Virus record (IMG/VR): IMGVR_UViG_3300004241_000007
Location: 1 to 43,116 of that record
Length of the DNA stretch: 43,116 bases
Source of the DNA: a virus
Taxonomy: Duplodnaviria; Caudoviricetes
Reading direction: 5' to 3' (one strand)
In this document: positions 1 through 42,927 of the stretch, one piece after another
Layout: every line of letters starts with the position of its first letter
Numbering within the stretch: position 1 is the first letter of the stretch
The notes under the pieces: generated by a model
What the model saw: the letters and a program-made list of their open reading frames with translations, nothing else
Told to the model about the DNA's origin: nothing
The model's database searches: none
Made by a program: the position numbers and the translations under genes

Positions 1-60
1 TAAAAAACTTTAGTCAAAAGCGTTTACATATAGTTACTATTATGGTATACTATATATATA
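1..60. repeat. 60-bp direct terminal repeat, left copy (probable circular assembly overlap)
   Basis: Bases 1-60 are identical to 43057-43116. Confidence 0.95.
23..51 (+). promoter_or_regulatory. Sigma-A-type early promoter P1
   Basis: TTTACA (23-28), 17-bp spacer containing TAGTTA, TG-n-TATACT (46-51). Confidence 0.85.
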
Positions 61-90
61 TAAGGAAAAACAATTCCTTAGGAGGAAATT

Positions 91-285
91 ATGAGAAGGT
101 TTGAATATATGGTCGAAGATGATTTGTTAAATGGCTATGCAACATTTGTCTCTCTCAAAGCGGCACGTGAATATGCAAAGCAGACATTGACACTTCCAAA
201 TGTTAAAATGGTTACTTTGATTAAATGGGACATAAAAAATGATTGTATGGTTGACACTTTTGATGAAGAAATTTATACAAAATAA
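91..285 (+). CDS. Small early protein, unknown function
   Basis: GGAGGAAATTATG start directly downstream of P1; 64 aa. Confidence 0.85.
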   Translation: MRRFEYMVEDDLLNGYATFVSLKAAREYAKQTLTLPNVKMVTLIKWDIKNDCMVDTFDEEIYTK

Positions 286-305
286 TTGAAATAATTAAAA
301 AACTT

Positions 306-338
306 CTCGAGTAATGCATTTCCCTACTCGGGTTTTTT
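306..338 (+). terminator. Conserved CTCGAGTAATGCA hairpin with T-tract
   Basis: CTCGAGTA/TACTCGGG stem followed by TTTTTT; one of four related copies. Confidence 0.7.
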
Positions 339-360
339 ATTCAAAAAATGAACTGGGCCG

Positions 361-530
361 AATGTAATGAAATGAAATGTAATGTAATGAAACAAAATGT
401 AATGTAAGAAAATGTAACAAATTTGTAACGAAATGTAACAAAACTGAGATTTATGAAAAATCTTACATGTAACAAAATGTAAGAAAACTGAGAAAATGTA
501 AGATTTTACATTTAATGTAAAAATTTTCAT
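361..530. repeat. TGTAA/AATGT-rich low-complexity spacer
   Basis: Degenerate AATGT/AATGA pentamers; TGTAA-GATT-TTACA at 497-510. Confidence 0.75.
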
Positions 531-551
531 AAAAATATTTTAAAATAATTG

Positions 552-580
552 TTTACAAATAGTTAATTATGTGATATAAT
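552..580 (+). promoter_or_regulatory. Early promoter P2
   Basis: TTTACA-17 bp (AATAGTTAATT...)-TATAAT with extended -10 TG. Confidence 0.85.
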
Positions 581-613
581 GTATATATAAGGAAAAACCT
601 TATGGAGGAAATT

Positions 614-1048
614 ATGTATAAATATCATGAATTGTTGGAAATTAATAAGGCATTAAGAATTTCAAAAGATAATTATAAGAAAATTTTGAATAGTTTTCCA
701 AATGATGAAGTGACATTAAATAAAATTGAAGTTATTGATGAATTATTAAATGGTGAGTTTAAAAGAAATTTATTTGATGAAGAAGAAGTTGATTATATTT
801 CTGAATTATTGGAAGTAAAATTTGATAAAGAAGTTGATAAAATTTGGTTAGATTTATTTCAAAATAAATTGAAAACCGGTCAACCATTTTCAGATTTTGA
901 AAAATTTATTTTATTAGATATAACAAAAGAAGAATTAAAAGAAATAAATCAGAATGAAAAAGATGGAAAATATAAAGTTGGTTATGGGAATTATATAAGT
1001 GATGTGTTTGTTATTTCAGAAATTATTGAAAAAATAAATCTAGGTTAA
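614..1048 (+). CDS. Acidic early protein, unknown function
   Basis: GGAGGAAATTATG places the start at 614; C-terminal half resembles the 1323-1610 product. Confidence 0.85.
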   Translation: MYKYHELLEINKALRISKDNYKKILNSFPNDEVTLNKIEVIDELLNGEFKRNLFDEEEVDYISELLEVKFDKEVDKIWLDLFQNKLKTGQPFSDFEKFILLDITKEELKEINQNEKDGKYKVGYGNYISDVFVISEIIEKINLG

Positions 1049-1058
1049 TTTGAAAAAT

Positions 1059-1085
1059 CTCAAGTAATGCAGTTTGTTACTTGGG
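1059..1085 (+). terminator. Second copy of the conserved post-gene hairpin
   Basis: CTCAAGTAA/TTACTTGGG; compensatory change relative to CTCGAGTAA/TTACTCGAG. Confidence 0.6.
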
Positions 1086-1115
1086 AATTTTCATGAAAAA
1101 AATGAAAACCCTTAC

Positions 1116-1240
1116 ATGTAATGTAATGTAATGTAATGTAATGTAAAATTTACATAAAAATGTAAAATCTTACATGTAAGGAAATGTAATAAACTCGAAA
1201 AAATGTAACAAATTTTCATAAAATGTAAAAATTTACATAA
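1116..1240. repeat. (ATGTA)6 microsatellite and TGTAA-N4-TTACA palindromes
   Basis: Six ATGTA units at 1116-1145; palindromes at 1161-1174 and 1224-1237. Confidence 0.8.
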
Positions 1241-1259
1241 AAAACTTTTATAAAAAGCC

Positions 1260-1288
1260 TTTACAAATAGTTAATTATAATATATAAT
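1260..1288 (+). promoter_or_regulatory. Early promoter P3
   Basis: TTTACA-17 bp-TATAAT with TAGTTAA in the spacer. Confidence 0.85.
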
Positions 1289-1322
1289 GTATATATAATC
1301 AAATATGATTATGGGAGAAATT

Positions 1323-1610
1323 ATGAAATTAAATTATGAAGAACTTGAGTATGTTGAGAATTTAATAGGTCTTGAGCAAAGCCCATTTTTACAACTTAAT
1401 ACAAATAAAGCTTATACAGATTTTCTTGAAAATATTTATGAAAAACTTGTCAAAAATGAAAAATTGACAATTGGTGAAAAAAATATTTTAATAAGTTTAA
1501 TAAAGGCCGATGACGAAAATATTTTAAATATGTTTAAAAATAATATAATTGATGACTTTGGTTTTGAAAGCAGTTTGGAATTTACCGAAAATTTAATAAA
1601 AAAATTTTAA
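1323..1610 (+). CDS. Acidic early protein, unknown function
   Basis: GGGAGAAATTATG start at 1323. Confidence 0.85.
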   Translation: MKLNYEELEYVENLIGLEQSPFLQLNTNKAYTDFLENIYEKLVKNEKLTIGEKNILISLIKADDENILNMFKNNIIDDFGFESSLEFTENLIKKF

Positions 1611-1618
1611 AAAAAGCG

Positions 1619-1647
1619 TTTACAAGTAGTTAATTATATGATATAAT
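1619..1647 (+). promoter_or_regulatory. Early promoter P4
   Basis: TTTACA-17 bp-TATAAT with TAGTTAA in the spacer. Confidence 0.85.
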
Positions 1648-1681
1648 GTATATATAATCAAATATGGTTATGGAGGAAATT

Positions 1682-1978
1682 ATGAACAAAGTTGATGAAA
1701 TTATGAATATGCAAACTAGCAAACAAGATTTTGATTTAATTATTAAAATTGTTGCTCGTGCACAAGATTTGGGTTTAATTATTGAAACTCGAGAAGTTAT
1801 GCCGCTAATTATGGACTTGGACAATACTCACAAAATTTGCCCACTTGATTTATTTGCTTTATTAAATTATTTTAATAATTTCAGTTTCGCACATGATATT
1901 TATGGCATTCAACAAAACTTTAATAGAAAAACTTATGAAATTGATAATTGTTTCTTGCCAAGATGTGCAAAAAAATAA
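1682..1978 (+). CDS. Conserved phage protein (DUF6874-like)
   Basis: Motifs MDL..TH..CPLDL..LL, F.HDIYGI..N.NR.T, NCFLPR; GGAGG RBS. Confidence 0.75.
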   Translation: MNKVDEIMNMQTSKQDFDLIIKIVARAQDLGLIIETREVMPLIMDLDNTHKICPLDLFALLNYFNNFSFAHDIYGIQQNFNRKTYEIDNCFLPRCAKK

Positions 1979-1988
1979 AATAAAAAAT

Positions 1989-2008
1989 GGCGGCTGAAAA
2001 AAGCCGCC
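1989..2008. terminator. GC hairpin, probable terminator (possibly minus-strand or bidirectional)
   Basis: GGCGGCT-GAAAAA-AGCCGCC preceded by A-tracts. Confidence 0.65.
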
Positions 2009-2046
2009 TAATATTATTAAAAAAAATATATAAATTATATTGCAAA

Positions 2047-2168
2047 AAGTTAATGAGTTAATAAAGTTAATGAAGTTAATGTTTTTGCGCTTAGAAATAT
2101 TAAAATAAAAATATATATATACGAAATAAAGTTCATTAACTTATTAACTTGATTAACTTCATTAACTT
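2047..2168. repeat. Inverted iteron element A (candidate replication origin)
   Basis: Four AAGTTAATG-like repeats, a 52-bp AT-rich core, then four CATTAACTT-like repeats. Confidence 0.8.
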
Positions 2169-2199
2169 TTTTAGCCAAAAATTTACGCCTGTAAAAAAA

Positions 2200-2845
2200 T
2201 GTAATATAATGAAACTATAAATGTAAGAAAATGTAACCGGTTTATATAAGTTACAAAATCTTACATTTAGTTACATTTATGTAAACAGTTACATTTGTTG
2301 TAAAACTTTACATTAGTAATGTAAAACCTTACATTTGGTTATGTAAAATAATGTAACGTAATGTAACGCCTTACATTTGGTAATGTAACACCTTACATTG
2401 TTATGTAACACTTTACATATTATATGTAACTGTTTACATATTATATGTAACTGTTTACATTATACATGTAACAATTTACATTTATAAATGTAAAACATTA
2501 CATTATGGTTGTAACAAAATGTAAAAAATATGTAAATAAATGTAATAATTTATGTAAATAAATGTAACAAAATGTAAAACTTTACATAAATTGTTGTAAA
2601 TTATTACATAAATAAATGTAAATTTTTACATAAATGTTGTAACAAAATGTAACGCTTATGTAAATAAATGTAATAAACATGTAACTGTTACATGGGCAAT
2701 GTAAATTGTTTCATAAATAAAATGTAAATTGTTTCAGGTTTATGAAAATTGTTACATAAAATTTATGTAAATGTTTCATAAATAAAATGTAAATGTTTCA
2801 TGGTCCAATGTAACTTGTTACATGAAATGTAACAAAATGTAACAA
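2200..2845. repeat. Phased TGTAA / TGTAA-N4-TTACA array
   Basis: Palindromes start at 2280, 2299, 2320, 2362, 2384, 2404, 2425, 2446, 2467, 2489, 2573, 2595 and 2617. Confidence 0.9.
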
Positions 2846-2932
2846 AAGCAGTTGAGTTGGGACGCCCGTCACGGGTGGCATCGTGCAACATTAATTTGAT
2901 GGGTCCGCTAAACGTTAACAAAGGAGAAACGC

Positions 2933-3478
2933 ATGACGCGATTGAGCTATACAACCAAGAAGTTTAATTTTACTACACCTGAAGAACTTCAGGACAAGAT
3001 GATTGAGTATCTCGAAAATATTGATAAGTTGAATGCTGACTACACGACCAAGTTTTGTAAGAATTGCGGGTTTGTCTACAGTGATGTTGATACACAGTGT
3101 TGTGATGAACCTAACATCGAGTACCGCCTTGTCCACAAACCGACGTATGAGTATGTTCGTCCAACTGTGTTCGGGTTTGTAAGTTATATCGGTATGGGTA
3201 TCAGTACGTATTATTTATATAAGACGCGCGAAGGCTTCGATGAGGTCGTAGAATGGTTCAGTACTATCTTACAAATGGAGCTTGAACAACTCCTACTTAA
3301 TCCGTTCAACCGTAACGTCGGTGGGGCGAAATTCGTAGCAGTTAATAACTTCGGTTGGAAAGATAAGACATACGTCGAACAGGTCGATGCGGGCAAAGTT
3401 GTGTTCGTGAACGACATATCGAAACTTGTAACGAACGAAGAAAATCTACGAATTGAGGAGGACACAGATGGAGATTAA
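2933..3478 (+). CDS. terS: Terminase small subunit (gp3 packaging-like) with Cys-rich insertion
   Basis: Directly upstream of terL; PTxxGxxxxxG..T...Y HTH-like pattern; AKF...NNFGWKDK C-terminus; AAGGAG RBS. Confidence 0.85.
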   Translation: MTRLSYTTKKFNFTTPEELQDKMIEYLENIDKLNADYTTKFCKNCGFVYSDVDTQCCDEPNIEYRLVHKPTYEYVRPTVFGFVSYIGMGISTYYLYKTREGFDEVVEWFSTILQMELEQLLLNPFNRNVGGAKFVAVNNFGWKDKTYVEQVDAGKVVFVNDISKLVTNEENLRIEEDTDGD

Positions 3479-29062: not shown

Positions 29063-29488
29063 ATGGCACGCGATTTAATGGATGAATTGAATGATGTATT
29101 TGAGGAAGTTAAAGACAAGGACTCGACATACGATAGACTAGAAGACGGTGAGTATTTGGGAATATTATCTGATATAATTGTTGGTGAAAGCAAAGCTGGA
29201 AAACCAATGTTAACGATGGTATTTGAAGTTACACACGGTCCTCGTGAAGGTCGTCAACACCGTAAATTCTTTATGTTAAGTGGAAACGATGAAAAACAAC
29301 TCAAGCAAAACCTACAACGTTATGCTACTGAAATCAGAAAAATCGGTATCGATACGTCTAAAGGTTTAAACTCTACGTTTGACCAATTAATGTTAAAAAT
29401 TGATGACGAATTTAAGTTCACAATCAAAACAACATTAAACAAAAATGGAACAGAATGGGTTAACACTTCGTTTGAAGCGGTAGAATAA
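29063..29488 (+). CDS. DUF669-like ssDNA-binding protein
   Basis: L.DGEY and ESKAGKPML...FEV..G...GR motifs. Confidence 0.82.
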   Translation: MARDLMDELNDVFEEVKDKDSTYDRLEDGEYLGILSDIIVGESKAGKPMLTMVFEVTHGPREGRQHRKFFMLSGNDEKQLKQNLQRYATEIRKIGIDTSKGLNSTFDQLMLKIDDEFKFTIKTTLNKNGTEWVNTSFEAVE

Positions 29489-31194
29489 TGTTTATATTTG
29501 ACTTTGAAGTATTTAAGTTTGACTGGTTGGTCGTGTTGAAAAACATGGCCACCGGTCGTTATATTACAATCATTAACGATAAGAATAAGTTGAAAGAGTT
29601 ATACGAAGAAAACAAAAACGACTTGTTCATTGGGTATAACAACATCGCATATGATAACATAATCTTTAAAGGAATACTATCAGACGTTGACCCAGCAGAA
29701 ATTACAAGATTAATCTTTGCATCAGAAAAAGGTACACGACATTTTGTATCTAAAGCGTTAGGCATTAAACAATTTCATTTGAATACAATTGATTTGATGC
29801 AAGATATATTAGGTATGAGTTTAAAAGAAGCAGAAGGTTTTATGAAAATGTCAATTGAAGAGTCAGACGTATCGTTCGATATTGATAGACCACTTACAGA
29901 AGACGAAATAAAACAGGTTGTTAAATACTGTACACATGACGTTGATGCAACAGAACAACTGCTACATATGCGATTACCATATGTAAAGTCAAAAATGAAT
30001 TTGATTAAAATGTTTAAATTGGGTTCGTCATATTTGGAAAAAACAAACGCAGCTTTATGTGCAGTAATTCTAAGTGCAAAAAGACGAAAACACACAGATG
30101 AATTTGAATACGATTTGCCACCTGAAGTTAACATCACTAAGTATACAAAAATCTTTGATTTATATATGAATAGAAAACTTGATTACGACGAAAAATTAAA
30201 AATAGACATTGCAGGTGTGCCACACATTCTCGCATATGGTGGAATACATGGGGCGTTAAATAATTTTATACACAAAGGTGAACTGTGGCAAATTGACGCA
30301 GCATCATACTATCCTACGTTAATGTTAGAGTATAACTATATCAGTAGAAATCTTAAAGACAACGCAAAGTATAAAGAAATTTATGACACAAGAATTAAAG
30401 CAAAACATGAGAAAAATAAAGCTGTTTCTGACTCATTAAAACTTGTTCTAAATACTGCATATGGCGCAATGAAAAGTCAGTACAATGAATTGAGTGACCC
30501 AAAAATGGCAAACCAGGTTTGTATCACAGGTCAATTATTATTGGTTGACTTAATCGAAAAGTTAGAACCGTATTGCAAATTGGTTCAATCTAACACAGAT
30601 GGAATTTTAGTTATTCCTTATAACAAAGAACGAATACAGGAAGTTATTAAAGAATGGGAAAAACGAACACGAATTGTTCTTGAGATAGACCCTTGTTCTG
30701 GTGTATGGCAAAAAGACGTTAATAACTATATTATGCTTTTCGAAGATGGTTCTGTTAAAACCAAAGGTGCATTTGTTTCACAGTATAACGAGTCATCGTT
30801 TAACATTAGAAACAACACACAAATTTTAGATATTGCTGTCGTTGATTATTTTACAAAAGGCATACATCCTATCGACACAATCATGAATTGCAATGACATA
30901 CACATGTTTCAAATCATCACAAACACAGGAAGTGTTTATGACAGAACAGTATGGTCAGTCAACAATGTTGATGTCGAAGTTAATAAAGTTAACCGAGTTT
31001 ACGCAACAACAGATACATCAAAAGGCAAATTGTACAAGATTAAAACAGAAAAAGGAAAACGCGATTCGATTGCAAACCTTCCTGACAATTGTCAATTAGC
31101 CAATGATAATAAGTTCGATATTAATTTATTGGACAAGAATTATTATATACAACGAGCATTGAGTAGAATTGCATACTTTGAAGGCACAGAATAG
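29488..31194 (+). CDS. DNA polymerase, family B-like, with 3'-5' exonuclease
   Basis: Exonuclease DFE, GYN...YD, Y...DV; polymerase DAASYYP, KLVLNTAYG, NTDG, VNNY, KG. Confidence 0.93.
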   Translation: MFIFDFEVFKFDWLVVLKNMATGRYITIINDKNKLKELYEENKNDLFIGYNNIAYDNIIFKGILSDVDPAEITRLIFASEKGTRHFVSKALGIKQFHLNTIDLMQDILGMSLKEAEGFMKMSIEESDVSFDIDRPLTEDEIKQVVKYCTHDVDATEQLLHMRLPYVKSKMNLIKMFKLGSSYLEKTNAALCAVILSAKRRKHTDEFEYDLPPEVNITKYTKIFDLYMNRKLDYDEKLKIDIAGVPHILAYGGIHGALNNFIHKGELWQIDAASYYPTLMLEYNYISRNLKDNAKYKEIYDTRIKAKHEKNKAVSDSLKLVLNTAYGAMKSQYNELSDPKMANQVCITGQLLLVDLIEKLEPYCKLVQSNTDGILVIPYNKERIQEVIKEWEKRTRIVLEIDPCSGVWQKDVNNYIMLFEDGSVKTKGAFVSQYNESSFNIRNNTQILDIAVVDYFTKGIHPIDTIMNCNDIHMFQIITNTGSVYDRTVWSVNNVDVEVNKVNRVYATTDTSKGKLYKIKTEKGKRDSIANLPDNCQLANDNKFDINLLDKNYYIQRALSRIAYFEGTE

Positions 31195-31211
31195 TGCATG
31201 AAAGGAATAAA

Positions 31212-31661
31212 ATGAAAGCATATATTGCAAGTCCATTCTTCAATCCTGAACAAGTTGAACGAGTGAAGTTTATCGAGACAACCCTTGGTAAAGTAGGAAT
31301 AGAAATGTTTAGTCCACGATTAGATACATATGTTAAACCGGACTCAAGTCATAGCGAAAGACGAATTGCATTTCACGAAAATCTAAAAGGGATTACTAAC
31401 GCAGACTTTATCGTGGTTGTCACAGACGGTAAAGACGTGGGTACAATCTTCGAAGCAGGTTATGCATGTGCAGCGAATATTCCAATATTATATTTCGCAG
31501 AAACATTAGGTGATAAACCGTTTAATCTAATGTTAGCACACAGCGCAACTCTTGGCACATGTAAAACAAGAACTGAGTTGTATCATGCGTTAACCGATGT
31601 TGCAACATTGGGTGTTGTGAATTGTATCAATCGACCTGAGTATAAAGGTTTAATCGAATAA
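31212..31661 (+). CDS. Nucleoside 2-deoxyribosyltransferase / nucleotide N-glycosidase family
   Basis: YIASPFF, AD.......DGKDVGTIFEAGYA and NLML motifs. Confidence 0.9.
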   Translation: MKAYIASPFFNPEQVERVKFIETTLGKVGIEMFSPRLDTYVKPDSSHSERRIAFHENLKGITNADFIVVVTDGKDVGTIFEAGYACAANIPILYFAETLGDKPFNLMLAHSATLGTCKTRTELYHALTDVATLGVVNCINRPEYKGLIE

Positions 31662-31662
31662 T

Positions 31663-32187
31663 ATGTTTTATAGATTAAGTGGATTAAAACGGTACAACAA
31701 TCAACCCAGAATAAAGTCTGAAAGTTTAGCTGAACACCAATATTATTGTGCATTAATCGTTATGTTCTTAAAACCACATATCGTCATTACTGAAACACAA
31801 TACGCATTATTATTAGAATACGCTTTGATACACGATGTTGGCGAGTTATATACTGGTGATATGCCACACAACATTAAAAAAGATTTTCCAATACTAAAAG
31901 AAACATTAGATATTGCCGAACAAAAGTTTTTAAGACAACATGGTTTTGACACAATCGAAAATGAAATTCAAAATACAATTAAATTAAAGACATTGTTCAA
32001 GTTAGCAGACACAATTCAAGTCATTCAGTATTGCAAAAACGAATTCATATTGGGTAACCACTCTAAAGAAATGGAACAAATCGATGACATTGCTCATGAT
32101 GAGTTTGAAAAATACTTTAGGTTATTAGTTACGCATGGCGTCATGAGTGATGATTTCGATTTAACTTCATTCATGTTAAAATTATGA
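31663..32187 (+). CDS. HD-domain deoxynucleotide phosphohydrolase (YfbR/DatZ-like)
   Basis: KRY, ESLAEH, ALIHD..E..TGD.P and KLAD motifs. Confidence 0.9.
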   Translation: MFYRLSGLKRYNNQPRIKSESLAEHQYYCALIVMFLKPHIVITETQYALLLEYALIHDVGELYTGDMPHNIKKDFPILKETLDIAEQKFLRQHGFDTIENEIQNTIKLKTLFKLADTIQVIQYCKNEFILGNHSKEMEQIDDIAHDEFEKYFRLLVTHGVMSDDFDLTSFMLKL

Positions 32188-32591
32188 TGATATTCGTTGA
32201 AGGCATTGACAAATCTGGCAAAGACACAATCGTTCGATATATTAATGAATATACAAATTTTGCTCATTACGTATCAGCAAGAGGTCCGATGAGTGTGTTA
32301 GCATACGGCCAGAAATTTGGAAGACTTGTTGACGGGTTTAGTTATTTAGAAAATATTAAAGATGAAGTTCTGTTTGTATATTTGGTTGTCGATGAAGACG
32401 ATTTTAATATTCGTTGTAAATTAACAAACGAACCATACACAAATTATGACGAGGACGTTAACGCATTTGATGATGCGCATACTTATATTACAAATCTAGG
32501 TATGCAAACTGTACGACTTAATACATCAAATATGACACCTCAAAGAATTGCAAACGTTATTGTACAATTAATACATGGGAGAAATACATGA
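32184..32591 (+). CDS. Compact dNMP (thymidylate-like) kinase
   Basis: VEGIDKSGKDT P-loop; R...S..AYG; lid R....E. Confidence 0.8.
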   Translation: MMIFVEGIDKSGKDTIVRYINEYTNFAHYVSARGPMSVLAYGQKFGRLVDGFSYLENIKDEVLFVYLVVDEDDFNIRCKLTNEPYTNYDEDVNAFDDAHTYITNLGMQTVRLNTSNMTPQRIANVIVQLIHGRNT

Positions 32592-33505
32592 AAAATACAA
32601 GCATACCTAAAATTAAACCGAAGATGGACATAAGCTTTGACATCAAACCAAAAACTAAATTTGTCAACAACCTTGATGCTATCGAAATTAAGTTATTAAA
32701 TTATACAAGAGTTGATGACCTAAACAACTTCGTTGCTGACTGGTCAAACGCAACATGGAACAAATACCCGTATGAGTCAACAGACAATGGTGATTACGAT
32801 GCTGCAAAGTATATCAACGGTTCAATTAATGGAATTGTGTTACCTACATTATTGGAAACGATTAACCTGACGTTCTTATTAAACGGAATTGACCTGACAA
32901 CTGTCACTCATATTCTACGATATAGAACTGCATCATTTTCAGCAGATTGTTCAGCAGATAAACTATGGCACGAAAGAACGTCATTAGTCCCATCGGCTGT
33001 TCAAAACTCCACTGAGATTTATCAAAAGTATATGAAGGCAACTGAATTATGTAAGGAAGTATATTGCGACATTATCAACTCAAAAGAAATTGGTATCATG
33101 GACGCAAGAAGTATCTTACCACGGAATTTAACAACATTCTATTATATGAATATCTCACTCAAAGACGTAATTCATTTTATTAGACAAAGAATTGATAAGC
33201 AAATTCAACCTGAAGTCGATAACATTATCGCATATAAAATGTATTTGGAAATACTAAGAGTATACCCTTTCCTAAAAGGTATGATTGATGTAAAAGCTCC
33301 AGCAATGCATTTTATTAAACAGGCAAATACAACTGGCTCAACAAATCTATACTGGCCAGACGAAGACTCTGACATATTCGATTGGAACCCTGAGTCATTC
33401 GTATATCAAAGAGAAAGAAAAACTTTGAATGGTACAAACGAAGGTGCAGAAAACCATTTTGAACAACTTAAGTTTGAACTATGGAAAGAGATTGAGAAAG
33501 TATAA
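32588..33505 (+). CDS. Divergent ThyX-fold flavoprotein
   Basis: PTLLE..N.TF, RYR.ASFS, DARSILP and FIRQR....QPE map onto ThyX motifs, but the catalytic signature is altered. Confidence 0.82.
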   Translation: MKNTSIPKIKPKMDISFDIKPKTKFVNNLDAIEIKLLNYTRVDDLNNFVADWSNATWNKYPYESTDNGDYDAAKYINGSINGIVLPTLLETINLTFLLNGIDLTTVTHILRYRTASFSADCSADKLWHERTSLVPSAVQNSTEIYQKYMKATELCKEVYCDIINSKEIGIMDARSILPRNLTTFYYMNISLKDVIHFIRQRIDKQIQPEVDNIIAYKMYLEILRVYPFLKGMIDVKAPAMHFIKQANTTGSTNLYWPDEDSDIFDWNPESFVYQRERKTLNGTNEGAENHFEQLKFELWKEIEKV

Positions 33506-33540
33506 CACAAGATTTAATAATCTTATGAGGGAGGTATTCA

Positions 33541-33948
33541 ATGAAGATAAAACTAATTAAGTTTAAAGAATTTAAGCCACCATTTAGAGCTCATTACAAC
33601 GACGCGGGTGCAGACATATACTCACCCGCAGAGTATGTACTAAAGCCACATACGACTACAAAAATACCATTGGGTTTCGGCATCGAGTTGCCTGATGGAA
33701 TGATGGGTGTTATATTTCCACGAAGTAGTTATGCAACAAGAGGCATTGTAGCAGAACACCCACCAATTGATAGTGGCTATAGAGGCGAAATACATTGTAT
33801 ACTAACCAACATGACCGATGAATATTTCGGTATATCTAAAGATGACAGAATTGGTCAGCTGGTTATTATGCCCGTTATTGTTGCAGATTTCGTCGAAAGT
33901 CTAACTGAAGAAAGACAAACAAATGGCTTCGGCTCATCTGGAAAATAA
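33541..33948 (+). CDS. dut: Trimeric dUTPase
   Basis: Five motifs: AGAD, PRSS, IDSGYRGEI, DRIGQL and R...GFGSSG. Confidence 0.95.
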   Translation: MKIKLIKFKEFKPPFRAHYNDAGADIYSPAEYVLKPHTTTKIPLGFGIELPDGMMGVIFPRSSYATRGIVAEHPPIDSGYRGEIHCILTNMTDEYFGISKDDRIGQLVIMPVIVADFVESLTEERQTNGFGSSGK

Positions 33949-35794
33949 TAAGTTTATCATTCTAAACAATGATAAAACTCCAAAACATTCCTTAGACGAA
34001 CACAAAACTTTTGACGAAGTTAAAAATTTAGACAGCTTAGCGATATTGGTTGATGAACCATATGTGATGATAGATATTGACGATGCATTCGAATATCTAA
34101 CACTCAAAAAAATCATTAAGGCAGAAAATATTAAGTGTAGAATAATGAAGACAACACGTGGTGGACATTTCTGGTTTAAGAGTATTGAACCAATGAAAAA
34201 CTTAGTTCATGCAAACACACCCATTACGCTAAACGTTGATGTTAGAAGTCACGGTAAAAAGAGTCTTGCAAAAGTAAAGCAAGACGGAGAATGGCGTGAA
34301 TGGGAAGTATGGGTTGATGAAGTAGACGACATTCCCTTTTGGTTAAGACCTGTGAGTCATAAATATCATTTCATGAACTCAAAAGAAGGTGATGGTAGAA
34401 ACTCTGATTTATTTAGTTATATCATCACGCTAACAAATGCAGGAATTACTAAGGAACAAACAAAACATGTCTATCAATTAATTAACACGCATTTGTTTGC
34501 CGATAAATTACCCAGTGAAGAGTTGAATACGATTTTAAGAGATGAAGCATTTGATAAAATAAAACCTGCATTCTTTGACAAACGTAGATTTATGCACGAT
34601 GTGTTCAGTAAATATTTCAGAAACGATAACAAAGTTTATGTTAAAAATGGTAGATTATTCATGTACGATGAAGGTTACTATTCAGACAATACAAAAGTTA
34701 TTGAAAAACGAATGATACAGTACATTCCTGAATTATCTAAAATGCAAAGACGAGAAGTTATGGATTATCTTAAGTTAATAGCAAACGACCCAATCAATAC
34801 AAGTATGTATCACGTTGTTTGTAAAAATGGATTAGTTGATATACGAGATTGCTCAGTCGGTAAATATACTTCAGAAATATTCTTAGCAAATAAAATCAAT
34901 GCAAGTTATATTCCAACAGCATATTCAGTTGATGTTGATAGAACATTAGACAAAATCTCTTGTAATGATAAAGAGTTAAGAATGTTAATCGAAGAAATGA
35001 TTGGCTATTGTTTAATCCAAACAGCTAAATTCCAAAAAGCGTTTATTTTATTTGGTGATGGTTCGAACGGTAAGAGTACTTTGTTAGACGTTGTGATTGC
35101 GTTATTAGGTGATAACAACGTGTCATCGTTAAGTTTAAAAGAGTTAAACCATAACTTTAAGTTAAGTGAAATTACTTCTAAAATGGCTAACATTGGTGAT
35201 GATATATCTGATGAATACTTGACAGACAGTTCTATCTTTAAGAAACTAGTTACTGGTGAAGAGATTACAGTTGATAAAAAGAATGAACAACCTTATAAAA
35301 TTAGAAATTATGCTAAGATGATATTCGCAGCAAATAACATGCCGAATACGATGGACAAATCAAACGGTATGATTAGACGGTTAAGTATCATTCCATTCAA
35401 TGCAGTATTTAGTAAAAATGACCCTGACTATGACCCGTTTATTATTGATAAACTAACAAGTGAAGAAGGTCTAAACTATTTATTAAAAATTGCAGTTGAT
35501 GGCATACGAAGAGTTTTCTCTAACAACAAGTTTACAGAACCAAAAGCAGTTGAGTCTATGGTGAGTGAATACGAAAAAGAAAACAACAATGTATTACAAT
35601 TTATCGATAAAGTCGAAATCGCCAATCGGGACGGTTCGTCTGTATATAATGACTATAAATTCTGGTGTGTTGAAAATGGAGTTATGAGTTATAAAATTAG
35701 AAAATTTAACAGTGAAATTAAAACGCATTTGCATTTAGAATTAGTAATTGAAAAATTCGAAGGAAGGACGGCACAAGTATGGCGCAAAAAATAA
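33923..35794 (+). CDS. Primase-helicase (Prim-Pol, PriCT, P4/D5-type SF3 helicase)
   Basis: DID, TTRGGHFWF, GDGRNS.LF, GDGSNGKST, FKKLVTGE, FAAN and RRL.IIPF motifs. Confidence 0.93.
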   Translation: MASAHLENNKFIILNNDKTPKHSLDEHKTFDEVKNLDSLAILVDEPYVMIDIDDAFEYLTLKKIIKAENIKCRIMKTTRGGHFWFKSIEPMKNLVHANTPITLNVDVRSHGKKSLAKVKQDGEWREWEVWVDEVDDIPFWLRPVSHKYHFMNSKEGDGRNSDLFSYIITLTNAGITKEQTKHVYQLINTHLFADKLPSEELNTILRDEAFDKIKPAFFDKRRFMHDVFSKYFRNDNKVYVKNGRLFMYDEGYYSDNTKVIEKRMIQYIPELSKMQRREVMDYLKLIANDPINTSMYHVVCKNGLVDIRDCSVGKYTSEIFLANKINASYIPTAYSVDVDRTLDKISCNDKELRMLIEEMIGYCLIQTAKFQKAFILFGDGSNGKSTLLDVVIALLGDNNVSSLSLKELNHNFKLSEITSKMANIGDDISDEYLTDSSIFKKLVTGEEITVDKKNEQPYKIRNYAKMIFAANNMPNTMDKSNGMIRRLSIIPFNAVFSKNDPDYDPFIIDKLTSEEGLNYLLKIAVDGIRRVFSNNKFTEPKAVESMVSEYEKENNNVLQFIDKVEIANRDGSSVYNDYKFWCVENGVMSYKIRKFNSEIKTHLHLELVIEKFEGRTAQVWRKK

Positions 35795-40544: not shown

Positions 40545-40580
40545 ATATATATAAGGAAGATGACTTCCTCGGAGGAAATT

Positions 40581-41882
40581 ATGGAAGAAAAAACAATTTG
40601 CTATTTACATTCTCATGGATTGAAGTTAGTTAAAAACGAAAAAACTTATATGTTGATAAATAGCAACGATTATGTACGAACTTTCGATTTATCAAAAAAA
40701 TCTTGGAAGTCAGACGGAGAAGCTAAGTATCTAAAAGAAACTACTAAAATCAAAATTATCGATGAGCTTCGTGCTTGGGCAAGAAACAGAACTGAAGTTG
40801 CTGAGTTTATAACTTGGTATGATGGAAGAACTTTCGAAGAAGAAGGCGAAGAAAAACCTAGTCCAAAAGCTGAAGCTAAAACTGAAGTTGTAGTTCTTGA
40901 TAATTCAGAAGTTGTTAACCAACTTAAGGAATTAACTTCAATGTTAAAAGCTCAATCTCAACGCAATCCATTTGAACAGGCAATGTTGGAAGGAATTATT
41001 GAAAAAGGGAAAGAATTGGCAACTGAAGAATTACGAGTTGAACTTACTTCTCATTTAAAATCATTCGTAGAAAAATCTTACGGTGTACTTCCAAAAGTTA
41101 TTGAAATAAAACAAGGTGACTCACGCAAAGAAATGCAAGGAAACTTCCATAATTTGTTTGATAAAATCATTAAAGTTGTTTCTGCAAAAATTCCACTAAT
41201 GTTGGTCGGTCCTGCTGGTTCAGGAAAAAATCATACTTTGGAACAAGTAGCTGAAGCTCTAAGTTTGGACTTTTATTTCTCAAATGCCATCACTCAAGAA
41301 TACAAATTAACTGGCTTCATTGATGCACATGGAAAATTTCAAGAAACTGAGTTCTTCAAAGCTTTCTCAAAAGGTGGTTTATTCTTCTTTGATGAAATTG
41401 ATGCATCATCACCTGAGTCACTTATAGTTGTTAATGCCGCTTTGGCAAATGGTTACTTTGATTTTCCAAATGGTAGAATTAATGCACATGAAAATTTCAG
41501 AGTTGTGGCTGCTGCAAACACATTCGGTCATGGTGCCGATATGATATACATTGGTCGTAACCAACTTGATGCGGCGACACTTGACAGATTTGCAGTTATG
41601 ACATTTGAATATGATGCTGAAATTGAAAAAGCACTTGCATTTGATACTGATTTATATGACTTCATATTTGACCTAAGACGTGCAATTAATAGAAGAGGCC
41701 TAAGATATGTAATTTCTATGAGAGCAACTATCAATGCCACAAAAATGTTGAATGCCGATATGGACAAATTAACAATTGTCAAATCAGTTATTACAAAAGC
41801 TATGTCAAAAGATGATGTAAATTCCATCATAAATGAATTAAAAATTGACAATGAATGGACTAAACTACTTCGTAAAGTATAA
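40581..41882 (+). CDS. MoxR/CobS-like AAA+ ATPase
   Basis: GPAGSGKN, FFFDEID, F...AANT.G.G and RNQLDAATLDRF motifs. Confidence 0.9.
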   Translation: MEEKTICYLHSHGLKLVKNEKTYMLINSNDYVRTFDLSKKSWKSDGEAKYLKETTKIKIIDELRAWARNRTEVAEFITWYDGRTFEEEGEEKPSPKAEAKTEVVVLDNSEVVNQLKELTSMLKAQSQRNPFEQAMLEGIIEKGKELATEELRVELTSHLKSFVEKSYGVLPKVIEIKQGDSRKEMQGNFHNLFDKIIKVVSAKIPLMLVGPAGSGKNHTLEQVAEALSLDFYFSNAITQEYKLTGFIDAHGKFQETEFFKAFSKGGLFFFDEIDASSPESLIVVNAALANGYFDFPNGRINAHENFRVVAAANTFGHGADMIYIGRNQLDAATLDRFAVMTFEYDAEIEKALAFDTDLYDFIFDLRRAINRRGLRYVISMRATINATKMLNADMDKLTIVKSVITKAMSKDDVNSIINELKIDNEWTKLLRKV

Positions 41883-41888
41883 AAACTG

Positions 41889-41917
41889 AATACACCGTCT
41901 AAAAAGCGGTGTATTTT
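41889..41917 (+). terminator. Probable terminator
   Basis: AATACACCG / CGGTGTATT stem. Confidence 0.7.
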
Positions 41918-42059
41918 CCTAGATGAGTGTGATAGAACGCGATAGTTAAACGAAAAATTAGGCATGTATTTTCCTATTAACTATTTGTAAACAATCAACA
42001 TGACTCATCTATGACAAAAAAATTTTTCAAAACTTATTAAAAAATAGTTAAAATAAACG

Positions 42060-42088
42060 TTTACAAGTAGTTAACACTATGATATAAT
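42060..42088 (+). promoter_or_regulatory. Early promoter P11
   Basis: TTTACA-AGTAGTTAA...TG-n-TATAAT; leader GAATATATACAAAGGAGGAAGATATG identical to P8. Confidence 0.88.
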
Positions 42089-42111
42089 GAATATATACAA
42101 AGGAGGAAGAT

Positions 42112-42927
42112 ATGTTAACAAACAACACGGCAAAATTTAACTTCACTTATTTCGGTTCTGTCAACGAGATGATGGGTTATATGACAACCGAAAAAGATTA
42201 TGACTCTGGCCGAGGTACCTCATCTCATAAGTCCGGCGACGAAGATTATTATGGTGATAATGGTTGGGATGATGCTGTTGAAAAAATCACTTACGGTGAT
42301 GAAAAACTAAGAAAATTCATTGACTCAAAAATGATTTCGATTAGTGAAATTAACACATTGGCAAATAAAATCAAAACCACATATTCACTTGATGTTGTTG
42401 GTGCTGTACCTCATGTCCCAAATGCAATATTGAATATTCCACAAAACATGATTAAAGTAACCAGACGTCAGGTCAAAAACAAAATTCTAAATATCTTCAT
42501 TTCTATCTCAGCCCATTGTGGAATTTCACAAACTGAGATTAAAGAAAATGCCGCAAAATGTGCAGCTGCCGTAAATCTTTTGGAACAGGAAGGTTACCGG
42601 TGTAATGTACTTTCTGGGTCATTCGCCGAACTGGACGGAAAAACCGTGGGTTATGTCACAAAAATCAAAAGTGACAAGGAACCGTTAAACTTGGCAATGA
42701 TGGCATATCCAATGGCAAGTCCTGGGATGTTGAGAAGATTTGGCCTTAGGTTCTTTGAAACTACACCAATTGATTTCACCCATTCTGGTTATGGAACACC
42801 TATGGACAATCATGACGCAATCAAGAAAATTCTTAAGGAAAATTTGAACATTGACAATCCATTTGTTTTCTCAGTTTCCAAGAATAGTGGCAAAGTGGAG
42901 GACATAGCAAATACATTTAAATTCTGA
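42112..42927 (+). CDS. vWA-like partner of the AAA+ ATPase
   Basis: DVVG..P.VP..I..IP.NM; beta strand NIFISIS..; LEQEGY; P.MLRR.G; GYG.P; follows a MoxR-type ATPase. Confidence 0.65.
   Translation: MLTNNTAKFNFTYFGSVNEMMGYMTTEKDYDSGRGTSSHKSGDEDYYGDNGWDDAVEKITYGDEKLRKFIDSKMISISEINTLANKIKTTYSLDVVGAVPHVPNAILNIPQNMIKVTRRQVKNKILNIFISISAHCGISQTEIKENAAKCAAAVNLLEQEGYRCNVLSGSFAELDGKTVGYVTKIKSDKEPLNLAMMAYPMASPGMLRRFGLRFFETTPIDFTHSGYGTPMDNHDAIKKILKENLNIDNPFVFSVSKNSGKVEDIANTFKF

Follow-up and report, generated by a model that had tools for sequence, protein, structure and literature searches.

A phage gene cassette built around a divergent ThyX and predicted to make a modified pyrimidine

What is made by five genes packed between the DNA polymerase and the primase-helicase of a small phage? 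The locus in question belongs to the virus record IMGVR_UViG_3300004241_000007, a complete phage genome of 43,116 bp with direct terminal repeats and siphovirus-like morphogenesis genes, which was analysed over its full length and is called here the window. The cassette encodes an N-glycosidase/transferase of the NDT family, an HD phosphohydrolase, a predicted kinase, a divergent ThyX that we term ThyX*, and a protein of the dUTPase fold. We conclude that it very probably makes a modified pyrimidine. That the modification would be a side chain derived from deoxyribose comes out slightly below an even chance. Our tentative proposal, by analogy with ordinary ThyX, is that ThyX* would couple 2-deoxyribose released by the NDT to carbon 5 of dCMP before replication.

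The five open reading frames (ORFs) lie on the + strand and mostly abut or overlap. They are given here with the two genes that flank them:

29488-31194, + strand: family B DNA polymerase (PolB), upstream context; phrog_1252, E 8e-150
31212-31661 (alternative GTG start at 31194), + strand: NDT-family N-glycosidase/transferase; PF05014, E 2e-15
31663-32187, + strand: HD phosphohydrolase of YfbR/DatZ type; PF12917, E 3e-14; phrog_7076 (DatZ-like), E 2e-20
32184-32591, + strand: predicted compact P-loop dNMP kinase; weak PF02223 match, E 4e-4, below the cut-off; P-loop EGIDKSGKDT
32588-33505, + strand: divergent ThyX (ThyX*); PF02511, E 7e-16; TIGR02170, 41 bits against a cut-off of 87.9
33541-33948, + strand: trimeric dUTPase-fold pyrophosphatase; PF00692, E 4e-25; motif 3 reads PPIDSGY
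33923-35794, + strand: P4/D5 primase-helicase, downstream context; TIGR01613, E 1e-69; phrog_864, E 1e-154

ORF calls and profile matches agree with the five-gene layout described in an initial annotation of this DNA. PurZ (adenylosuccinate synthetase family), Que/Dpd, ThyA and glycosyltransferase genes, which that annotation had not seen either, were not found among the main + strand ORFs scanned, and the ThyA and C5-methyltransferase profiles (PF00303 and PF00145) gave no match in the window genome. PolB is placed outside the cassette because close homologues of it occur in kin with an empty slot.

ThyX* has the fold of ThyX. Its AF2 model (pLDDT 87.6, from a 31-row alignment) finds ThyX structures at all Foldseek PDB matches listed, the best with E 1.4e-10 at about 15% identity. 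In the alignment with T. maritima ThyX, the equivalents of R78, R147 and R174 are kept, and the dUMP-binding arginines R147 and R174 are present in 65 of 65 homologues. On the other side, H53 is replaced by Leu85 and R74 by Thr107, R90 is also lost, and the S88-G-R90-Y91 loop has become C121-S-A-D124, with a register uncertain by one residue. The canonical RHRx7SxR motif is absent, the stretch reading RYRTASFSADCSADK, and a C-terminal extension of about 80 aa is added relative to canonical ThyX. The position of H53, assigned from the profile alignment, is Leu in 31 of 31 close homologues; in the wider set of 65, every sequence has L, N, F or V there. In ThyX, H53 stacks on the folate pteridine (PMC11940539), and its loss in all 65 homologues argues against folate use by ThyX*. 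Mutants of S88, R90 and Y91 are reported to be strongly impaired in methylation (PMC8316439). Cys121 and Asp124 are invariant in the 31 close homologues. We had considered this pair as the determinant of activity, the Asp facing cytosine N4; the idea is weakened by related subtypes that read ESQMP, STDP or QTQAD.

The family comprises 484 proteins among 995 candidates. In 50,697 GenBank phage records the sole match is the Geobacillus phage GR1. A single-protein query of viral contigs gave no match; an alignment query succeeded and retrieved 42 viral loci plus 2 contigs binned to Clostridia and Ruminococcus, 44 loci in all that were not dereplicated. The polymerases found at these loci are PolIII (23), PolA (10) and PolB (2). 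An NDT is encoded in 38 of them (37 by a motif filter, plus L039); the six others are four fragments, the fragment L035, and L021, which belongs to a complete genome (G001). A phosphatase is present in all 44, either HD (30) or an NT5C/HAD nucleotidase (14), never both. In the reverse direction, viral loci with this NDT type number 305; among the best 80, a divergent ThyX is present in 75 and an HD in 70. Of the five loci that lack the divergent ThyX, three lie on short or cut contigs and two are unexplained. Clustering of NDT and phosphatase with ThyX* is thus far beyond chance, and the cassette is a mobile, tightly coupled unit of unrelated phages, established beside PolA, PolB or PolIII.

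Other genes at these loci bear on the function. A second ThyX, of ordinary type, is carried by 12 of the 44 loci, so ThyX* is not needed for dTMP there. Of 17 cassette genomes, 16 yielded no strong second PF02511 match; the exception is G008, and G016 and G017 gave weak partial matches. Glycosyltransferases are encoded in or beside the cassette of GR1 (T4 alpha-glucosyltransferase family, E 6e-53) and of L035 and L211 (TAGT), which suggests a hydroxyl handle. dCMP deaminases are common near cassette loci.

The slot itself is informative. Among the best 80 of 148 loci with PolB relatives, none has the window cassette beside the polymerase, and mostly polymerase and primase are adjacent or separated by unrelated genes. 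Five of the closest PolB relatives (L049-L053, 51-62% identity) have kinase and ThyA-fold genes in the same slot. Four complete copies of this ThyA have Asp at the Asn177 position, and these loci also carry the dUTPase subfamily of the window; L049 adds a T4 beta-glucosyltransferase. In the ThyA fold, Asp177 is described as marking dCMP specificity (PMC13326640, PMC8670742). Similarly, the GR1 cluster occupies the place where Enterococcus phage Planchet has a kinase, an Asp177 ThyA, a dUTPase and glycosyltransferases. From their sequences, the cassettes of L049-L053 and Planchet are predicted to be of the hydroxymethylcytosine type. The dUTPase subfamily shared with them is also found in Dulem virus 37 which, together with Enterococcus Andrewesvirinae, provides the closest GenBank phage relatives of the window protein (53-56%). 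By this shared subfamily the trimeric dUTPase-fold enzyme is possibly a dUTPase/dCTPase.

Which base would be modified? Restriction sites are under weaker counter-selection when a base within them is modified. We compared observed with expected counts (O/E) on near-whole genomes, using the first 40 kb for some, 45 of 222 kb for SP-15, 74 of 176 for GXN1 and 13 of 182 for LIS04. For GC-only 4-mer palindromes the median O/E is 0.87 in 10 type-1 cassette genomes versus 0.62 in 10 cassette-free controls (p=0.002), and 0.90 in 6 type-2 cassette genomes, two of which stand at 0.48 and 0.60. Two Asp177-ThyA phages give 1.07 and 0.99. The window has 92 such sites for 101 expected (O/E 0.91); its nearest kin with an empty slot stand at 0.19 and 0.11. 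It thus displays a relaxed avoidance of C-containing sites and lacks the purge of GC-only sites that goes with T modification, as in SP-15 (0.04), where this modification is known, and in GXN1 (0.47) and LIS04 (0.53), where it is inferred. Retention of GC-only sites in cassette genomes points to cytosine. A C5 methyltransferase was considered as the cause and rejected, since 0 of 16 cassette genomes carry one. C-modified DNA is reported to resist 82-94% of enzymes and hydroxymethyluracil DNA about 8% (PMC7653180).

Sites containing A and T gave another picture. Avoidance of GATC, GATATC and AT-only sites did not separate cassette from control genomes at the whole-genome level (p 0.08-0.85); GATC did so on partial loci (p=8e-4), a result that we do not use as support. 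In the window, GATC occurs in 2 copies (O/E 0.02) and GATATC in none for 11.3 expected, and GANTC and CATG are low. The pattern is similar in several relatives, cassette-bearing or cassette-free.

Where would the added group come from? Aligned to solved NDTs, the window NDT has Tyr4, Asn57 at the position of the general-acid Asp, Asp75, the nucleophile Glu81, and Asn105. Tyr and Glu of the Tyr-Asp-Glu triad are thus kept and the Asp is replaced, as in DmtZ, a phage NDT with the same Asn that hydrolyses dAMP (PMC12884076). In a 45-row set, all catalytic NDT domains linked to ThyX variants have this Asn, versus 3 of 13 other rows. The comparison with MilB and DNPH1 made in the initial annotation turned out to be weak. 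Serines (S98 and S128 in the human protein) form the phosphate pocket of DNPH1 (PMC10603095), and three DNPH1-like bacterial rows of our alignment have Ser at both positions, where the window NDT has Asp75 and Asn105. These residues fit a nucleoside substrate made by the adjacent phosphatase, and the enzyme is predicted to release 2-deoxyribose or 2-deoxyribose 5-phosphate. By phylogeny, the window NDT forms a clade with that of GXN1 (97/97), with SP-15 and LIS04 as sister (90/86), YerA41 and Carin-5 having no resolved placement.

The HD protein matches DatZ in structure comparison (E 0.002). It reads R-Y-N-N, a stretch outside that structural alignment, with Tyr and Asn at the positions that we tentatively take for DatZ W20 and I22; in PolA-type cassettes (L025, L029, L031, L033) the HD reads RYST or RYTN. 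The kinase is homologous to that of GR1 (E 1e-9) and is often fused to the NDT in relatives; it is predicted to phosphorylate the modified dNMP. A recent preprint describes restriction-resistant phage DNA that carries NDT, HD (Y20-T/S22) and PolA without PurZ (bioRxiv 10.1101/2025.10.22.683976). The preprint places these contigs in the dZ pathway; they may carry the cassette described here, in which case their resistance supports a modification.

Searches with NDT and HD led to a second ThyX-like family, that of gp130 of Bacillus phage SP-15. It is present in 10 GenBank records, including Carin-5, YerA41 and GXN1, and SP-15 itself was the sole match in a scan of viral contigs. The genes compared are gp127 (NDT), gp129 (short-chain dehydrogenase/reductase, SDR), gp130 (Thy1-like) and gp90 (HD) of SP-15, gp81 and gp86 of Yersinia phage YerA41, and gp49 of Cobetia phage Carin-5. 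An NDT is encoded by SP-15, YerA41, Carin-5, LIS04, Va2, GXN1 and Vibrio phage 1.031.O, with an HD match in all but Va2, and HD, ThyX and NDT are adjacent in 1.031.O. SP-15, Carin-5 and YerA41 each combine an Asn57-type NDT and an HD with a ThyX variant in which, as we read the alignment, H53 is missing; by the same reading it is also missing from the ThyX variants of the other phages just named. The earlier statement that the window cassette fits no known pathway therefore misses these pentyl-uracil phages, which share its NDT and HD types.

In SP-15, more than half of T is replaced by 5-(4,5-dihydroxypentyl)uracil (DHPU), made before replication at the nucleotide level, and gp130 was hypothesised in the genome paper to be a hydroxymethylase (PMC5977210). 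We found no explanation for the origin of the pentyl-uracil linker in the literature searched. A 1978 study by Walker and Mandel reportedly, to judge by its title, observed incorporation of a ribose label into DHPU. The linkers on dT are given as 88 Da in Carin-5 and 104 Da in YerA41, both with phosphate (PMC12686479, PMC13697223), although one later sentence of PMC12686479 swaps the two masses. By computation, 2-deoxyribose reductively coupled to dU has a mass of 346.138 Da (dT+104.047), and 330.143 Da (dT+88.052) minus one oxygen. These values match the reported cores of YerA41 (dT+104) and Carin-5 (dT+88).

What the analysis establishes is the gene set, the ThyX fold, the lost residues, the synteny and the site signature; the reactions and product that follow are predictions. 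The HD enzyme (NT5C elsewhere) would strip canonical deoxynucleotides to nucleosides, or else trim the side chain. The NDT would hydrolyse a deoxynucleoside or dNMP to free deoxyribose or deoxyribose 5-phosphate, an aldehyde when open. Canonical ThyX is described as able to draw carbon from free formaldehyde via an N5-carbinolamine (PMC8316439); by analogy, the reduced FAD of ThyX* would take the sugar aldehyde in the same way, and transfer to C5 with reduction would give a 5-(3,4,5-trihydroxypentyl) pyrimidine, with a nucleoside mass of 345.154 Da on dC or 346.138 Da on dU. The dUTPase-fold enzyme would supply the monophosphate substrate, the kinase would activate the product and the phage polymerase would incorporate it; in relatives, optional glycosyltransferases would decorate the hydroxyls. 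In its widest form the proposal, equally tentative, is a folate-independent ThyX family that uses sugar aldehydes as carbon donors. It would convert dCMP to 5-(3,4,5-trihydroxypentyl)cytosine in the window phage, GR1 and many gut and aquatic phages, and dUMP to the pentyl-uracil linker in SP-15, YerA41 and Carin-5.

Several observations weigh against this proposal. The pentyl chain is known on uracil only. ThyX* and SP-15 gp130 gave no HMM match and an hhalign probability of 28%, so direct homology was rejected; by sequence they are superfamily-level relatives, and the SP-15 analogy consequently rests on shared partners. ThyX-linked NDTs form one group in 0% of bootstrap trees, their common origin being neither shown nor excluded, and Asn57 also occurs in the 3 of 13 unrelated NDT domains cited above. 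DmtZ, the NDT of Z-phages, is described as a destroy/recycle enzyme (PMC12884076), so the presence of an NDT does not by itself imply carbon donation. The SDR reductase failed as a marker of the dihydroxypentyl form, YerA41 having a gp129 homologue, and Carin-5 has no gp129 match and encodes a different, FabG-like protein instead. The complete genome G001 has ThyX* without NDT or HD, and carries an FAD amine-oxidase-like protein and NT5C in their place. The T4 alpha-glucosyltransferase-family enzyme of GR1 fits a hydroxymethyl handle equally well. As to the base, the site test is indirect, on genomes that are related rather than independent and whose hosts were not identified; its p value rises to 0.045 when 5-mers are added, and on partial loci (p=0.12) significance is lost. 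Finally, the enzyme cocktail of the preprint includes AT-only cutters, MluCI and AseI among them (bioRxiv 10.1101/2025.10.22.683976), which leans to T modification if its contigs are this cassette.

Standing close to deoxyribose coupling on dCMP, and only a little more doubtful, is the view that ThyX* attaches a small group to C5 of dCMP: a methyl, a hydroxymethyl or, if O2 takes part, a hydroxyl. The enzyme would then be the ThyX-fold counterpart of T4 gp42 or of the RB69 5-hydroxy-dCMP synthase, while NDT and HD would destroy or recycle canonical cytosine nucleotides, a role that DmtZ exemplifies. The Asp177 ThyA cassettes that fill the same slot in sister phages speak for it, as do the T4 alpha and TAGT glycosyltransferases beside ThyX* in GR1, L035 and L211, and the site test, which points to C here as well. 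In 12 of 44 loci ThyX* also has as its neighbour a short protein of ThyA fold, in which Cys and Asp177 are present whenever the motif is complete, and flavin-dependent hydroxylation of dCMP by a ThyA-fold enzyme has been described (PMC13326640). However, the loss of H53 in all 65 homologues counts against a folate-derived group, and an O2-dependent step appears unlikely for relatives on contigs binned to Clostridia and Ruminococcus, which are anaerobes. Moreover, a small group leaves unexplained why the same NDT type pairs with H53-less ThyX variants in pentyl-uracil phages, and why NDT and HD are dispensable for the Asp177 ThyA cassettes of the sister phages.

The remaining readings are improbable. 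Deoxyribose could be coupled to dUMP instead, so that 5-(trihydroxypentyl)uracil would take the place of part of the thymine, in the manner of YerA41 and SP-15. The sole chemical precedent is indeed on uracil, R174, which activates dUMP through N3, is kept, the cassette holds a dUTPase with dCMP deaminases common nearby, and the NDT+HD+PolA contigs resisted MluCI and AseI. Yet GC-only sites are strongly depleted in SP-15, GXN1 and LIS04 but not in cassette genomes, several of which continue to purge GATC, GATATC or ATTAAT, and R90, retained in most SP-15-type enzymes, is lost in ThyX*. Marginally less probable still is that ThyX* is a divergent thymidylate synthase in a cassette that boosts dTTP or remodels pools against host defences, the DNA remaining canonical. 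The intact fold and dUMP-binding arginines, the adjacent dUTPase and the general absence of a strong second PF02511 match would suit this role, and GR1 DNA was sequenced by ordinary Illumina and PCR-amplified (PMC10237291). This reading has against it the loss of the catalytic loop and H53, the additional ordinary-type ThyX in 12 of 44 loci, the glycosyltransferases inside the cassette in several phages, its exchange with modification cassettes and the relaxed GC-site avoidance. We obtained no support for the pool-remodelling alternative, directed at nucleotide-based defences, of the initial annotation. Some other chemistry is also unlikely, though slightly less so than these two. The annotation's other suggestion, synthesis and incorporation of a non-canonical pyrimidine, is strengthened by synteny across three polymerase families and loss of ThyX catalytic residues, and further by the second ThyX of 12 of 44 loci, the swap with hydroxymethylcytosine cassettes in the slot and the relaxed avoidance of GC-only sites.

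The survey brought up several variants of these loci. A second ThyX* subtype, with the ESQMP loop, keeps the NDT-HD-kinase order and is often followed by an SAM methyltransferase or a glycosyltransferase (L167-L170, L180, L184, L185, L188, L191, L195, L204, L205, L208, L211, L216). In L035:4706-8288, with a TAGT glycosyltransferase, and in L021:6228-8697 (G001), with an SAM methyltransferase, the NDT and HD that usually accompany ThyX* give way to NT5C and an FAD amine-oxidase-like protein; this FAD protein is possibly an alternative source of aldehyde. The short ThyA-fold protein (150-300 aa) lies directly after ThyX* (L004:10996-11592 and 11 others; UDY80710 in GR1), is fused to a kinase at L009:11064 and L030:16508, and would be either the remnant of a hydroxymethylcytosine cassette or a helper. 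In a large-phage clade (L017-L037, contigs to 176 kb), ThyX* coexists with a ThyX of ordinary type, and genes nearby encode a dUTPase-NT5C fusion, an Fpg-like glycosylase and an NAD-dependent epimerase.

In phages with ThyX variants outside this family, YerA41 gp86 (L134:9380-9916), annotated as a mannosyltransferase, is an NDT. SP-15 gp127 (L132:33730-34680) and its LIS04 homologue (L136:5977-6942) contain tandem NDT domains, the second copy being devoid of the Glu nucleophile. A third ThyX-variant family, with no tblastn match to gp130, occurs beside the same NDT (L136:7514-8629, LIS04 gp124; L149:5238-6107). Dulem virus 37 (L131:5949-7885) encodes a ThyX variant with H53 kept and Gln at R90, a candidate folate-dependent modifier of ThyX fold, together with a PPIDSGY dUTPase and a dCMP deaminase; its genome has 0 GATC for 95.5 expected. 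Elsewhere in the window, G+C falls to 23% over positions 1-3000, where annotated genes are few, compared with 30-42% in the rest, and positions 40560-42927 hold an AAA_5 ATPase and DUF7192 pair that recurs in 7 ThyX* loci.

In the literature searched, pre-replicative pyrimidine synthases are all of ThyA fold. In a search where subscription journals were largely missing, we found no account of the cassette or of a deoxyribose donor for ThyX, nor the word trihydroxypentyl; in the part of PMC8989533 available to us, ThyX is brought up merely as a mechanistic analogy. Folate-free C-C coupling of a sugar by a ThyX fold would, if true, be new flavin chemistry, and common phages of the gut and the environment would probably contain a new DNA base. 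It would also account for how SP-15 makes dihydroxypentyl-uracil, a base known since the 1970s, and how YerA41 makes its 104-Da linker. The fallback, a ThyX-fold cytosine modifier, would still be a new class of anti-restriction enzyme. The cultured phage GR1 and small genes expressible in E. coli make the mechanism cheaply testable.

How does the cassette compare with known systems? With the canonical ThyX of T. maritima (TM0449) and M. tuberculosis, ThyX* shares the fold and the equivalents of R78, R147 and R174; it differs at H53, R74, S88, R90 and Y91, by its C-terminal extension and by a TIGR02170 score under the cut-off. Its nearest cultured relative, GR1 (OK896991), has in one cluster NDT (49%), HD (34%), kinase and ThyX* (42% over the full length). 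GR1 is of PolIII type and adds a T4 alpha-glucosyltransferase-like enzyme, the short ThyA-fold protein and a dimeric dUTPase; no report on its DNA chemistry was found in the accessible text of PMC10237291. The pentyl-uracil phages likewise unite in one genome an Asn57-type NDT, HD and a ThyX variant apparently without H53. However, their ThyX belongs to a family of 380-430 aa remote from ThyX* that mostly keeps S-x-R, they carry sugar-transferase clusters, they modify T, and SP-15 avoids GC-only sites.

The Z-genome system also has an HD (DatZ) and an NDT with Asn at the triad position (DmtZ) (PMC12884076). The window differs from it in that no PurZ was found among the ORFs scanned, on which ground the Z-pathway reading was rejected, and in that the partner of HD is a pyrimidine-type ThyX fold. 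The dCMP hydroxymethylase pathway of T4 type, with the versions of it predicted in Firmicutes (Andrewesvirinae, Planchet among them; L049-L053), has in common with the cassette the slot, a kinase with a synthase, the dUTPase subfamily and the site signature. Its synthase depends on folate, has the ThyA fold with Asp177 and lacks NDT and HD neighbours, whereas ThyA and glycosyltransferase were not found in the window scan. The cassette would work on the make-new, destroy-old scheme of T4 and SPO1 type, but it belongs neither with canonical ThyX or the T4 pathway nor with the gp130 family of SP-15 or the Z system.

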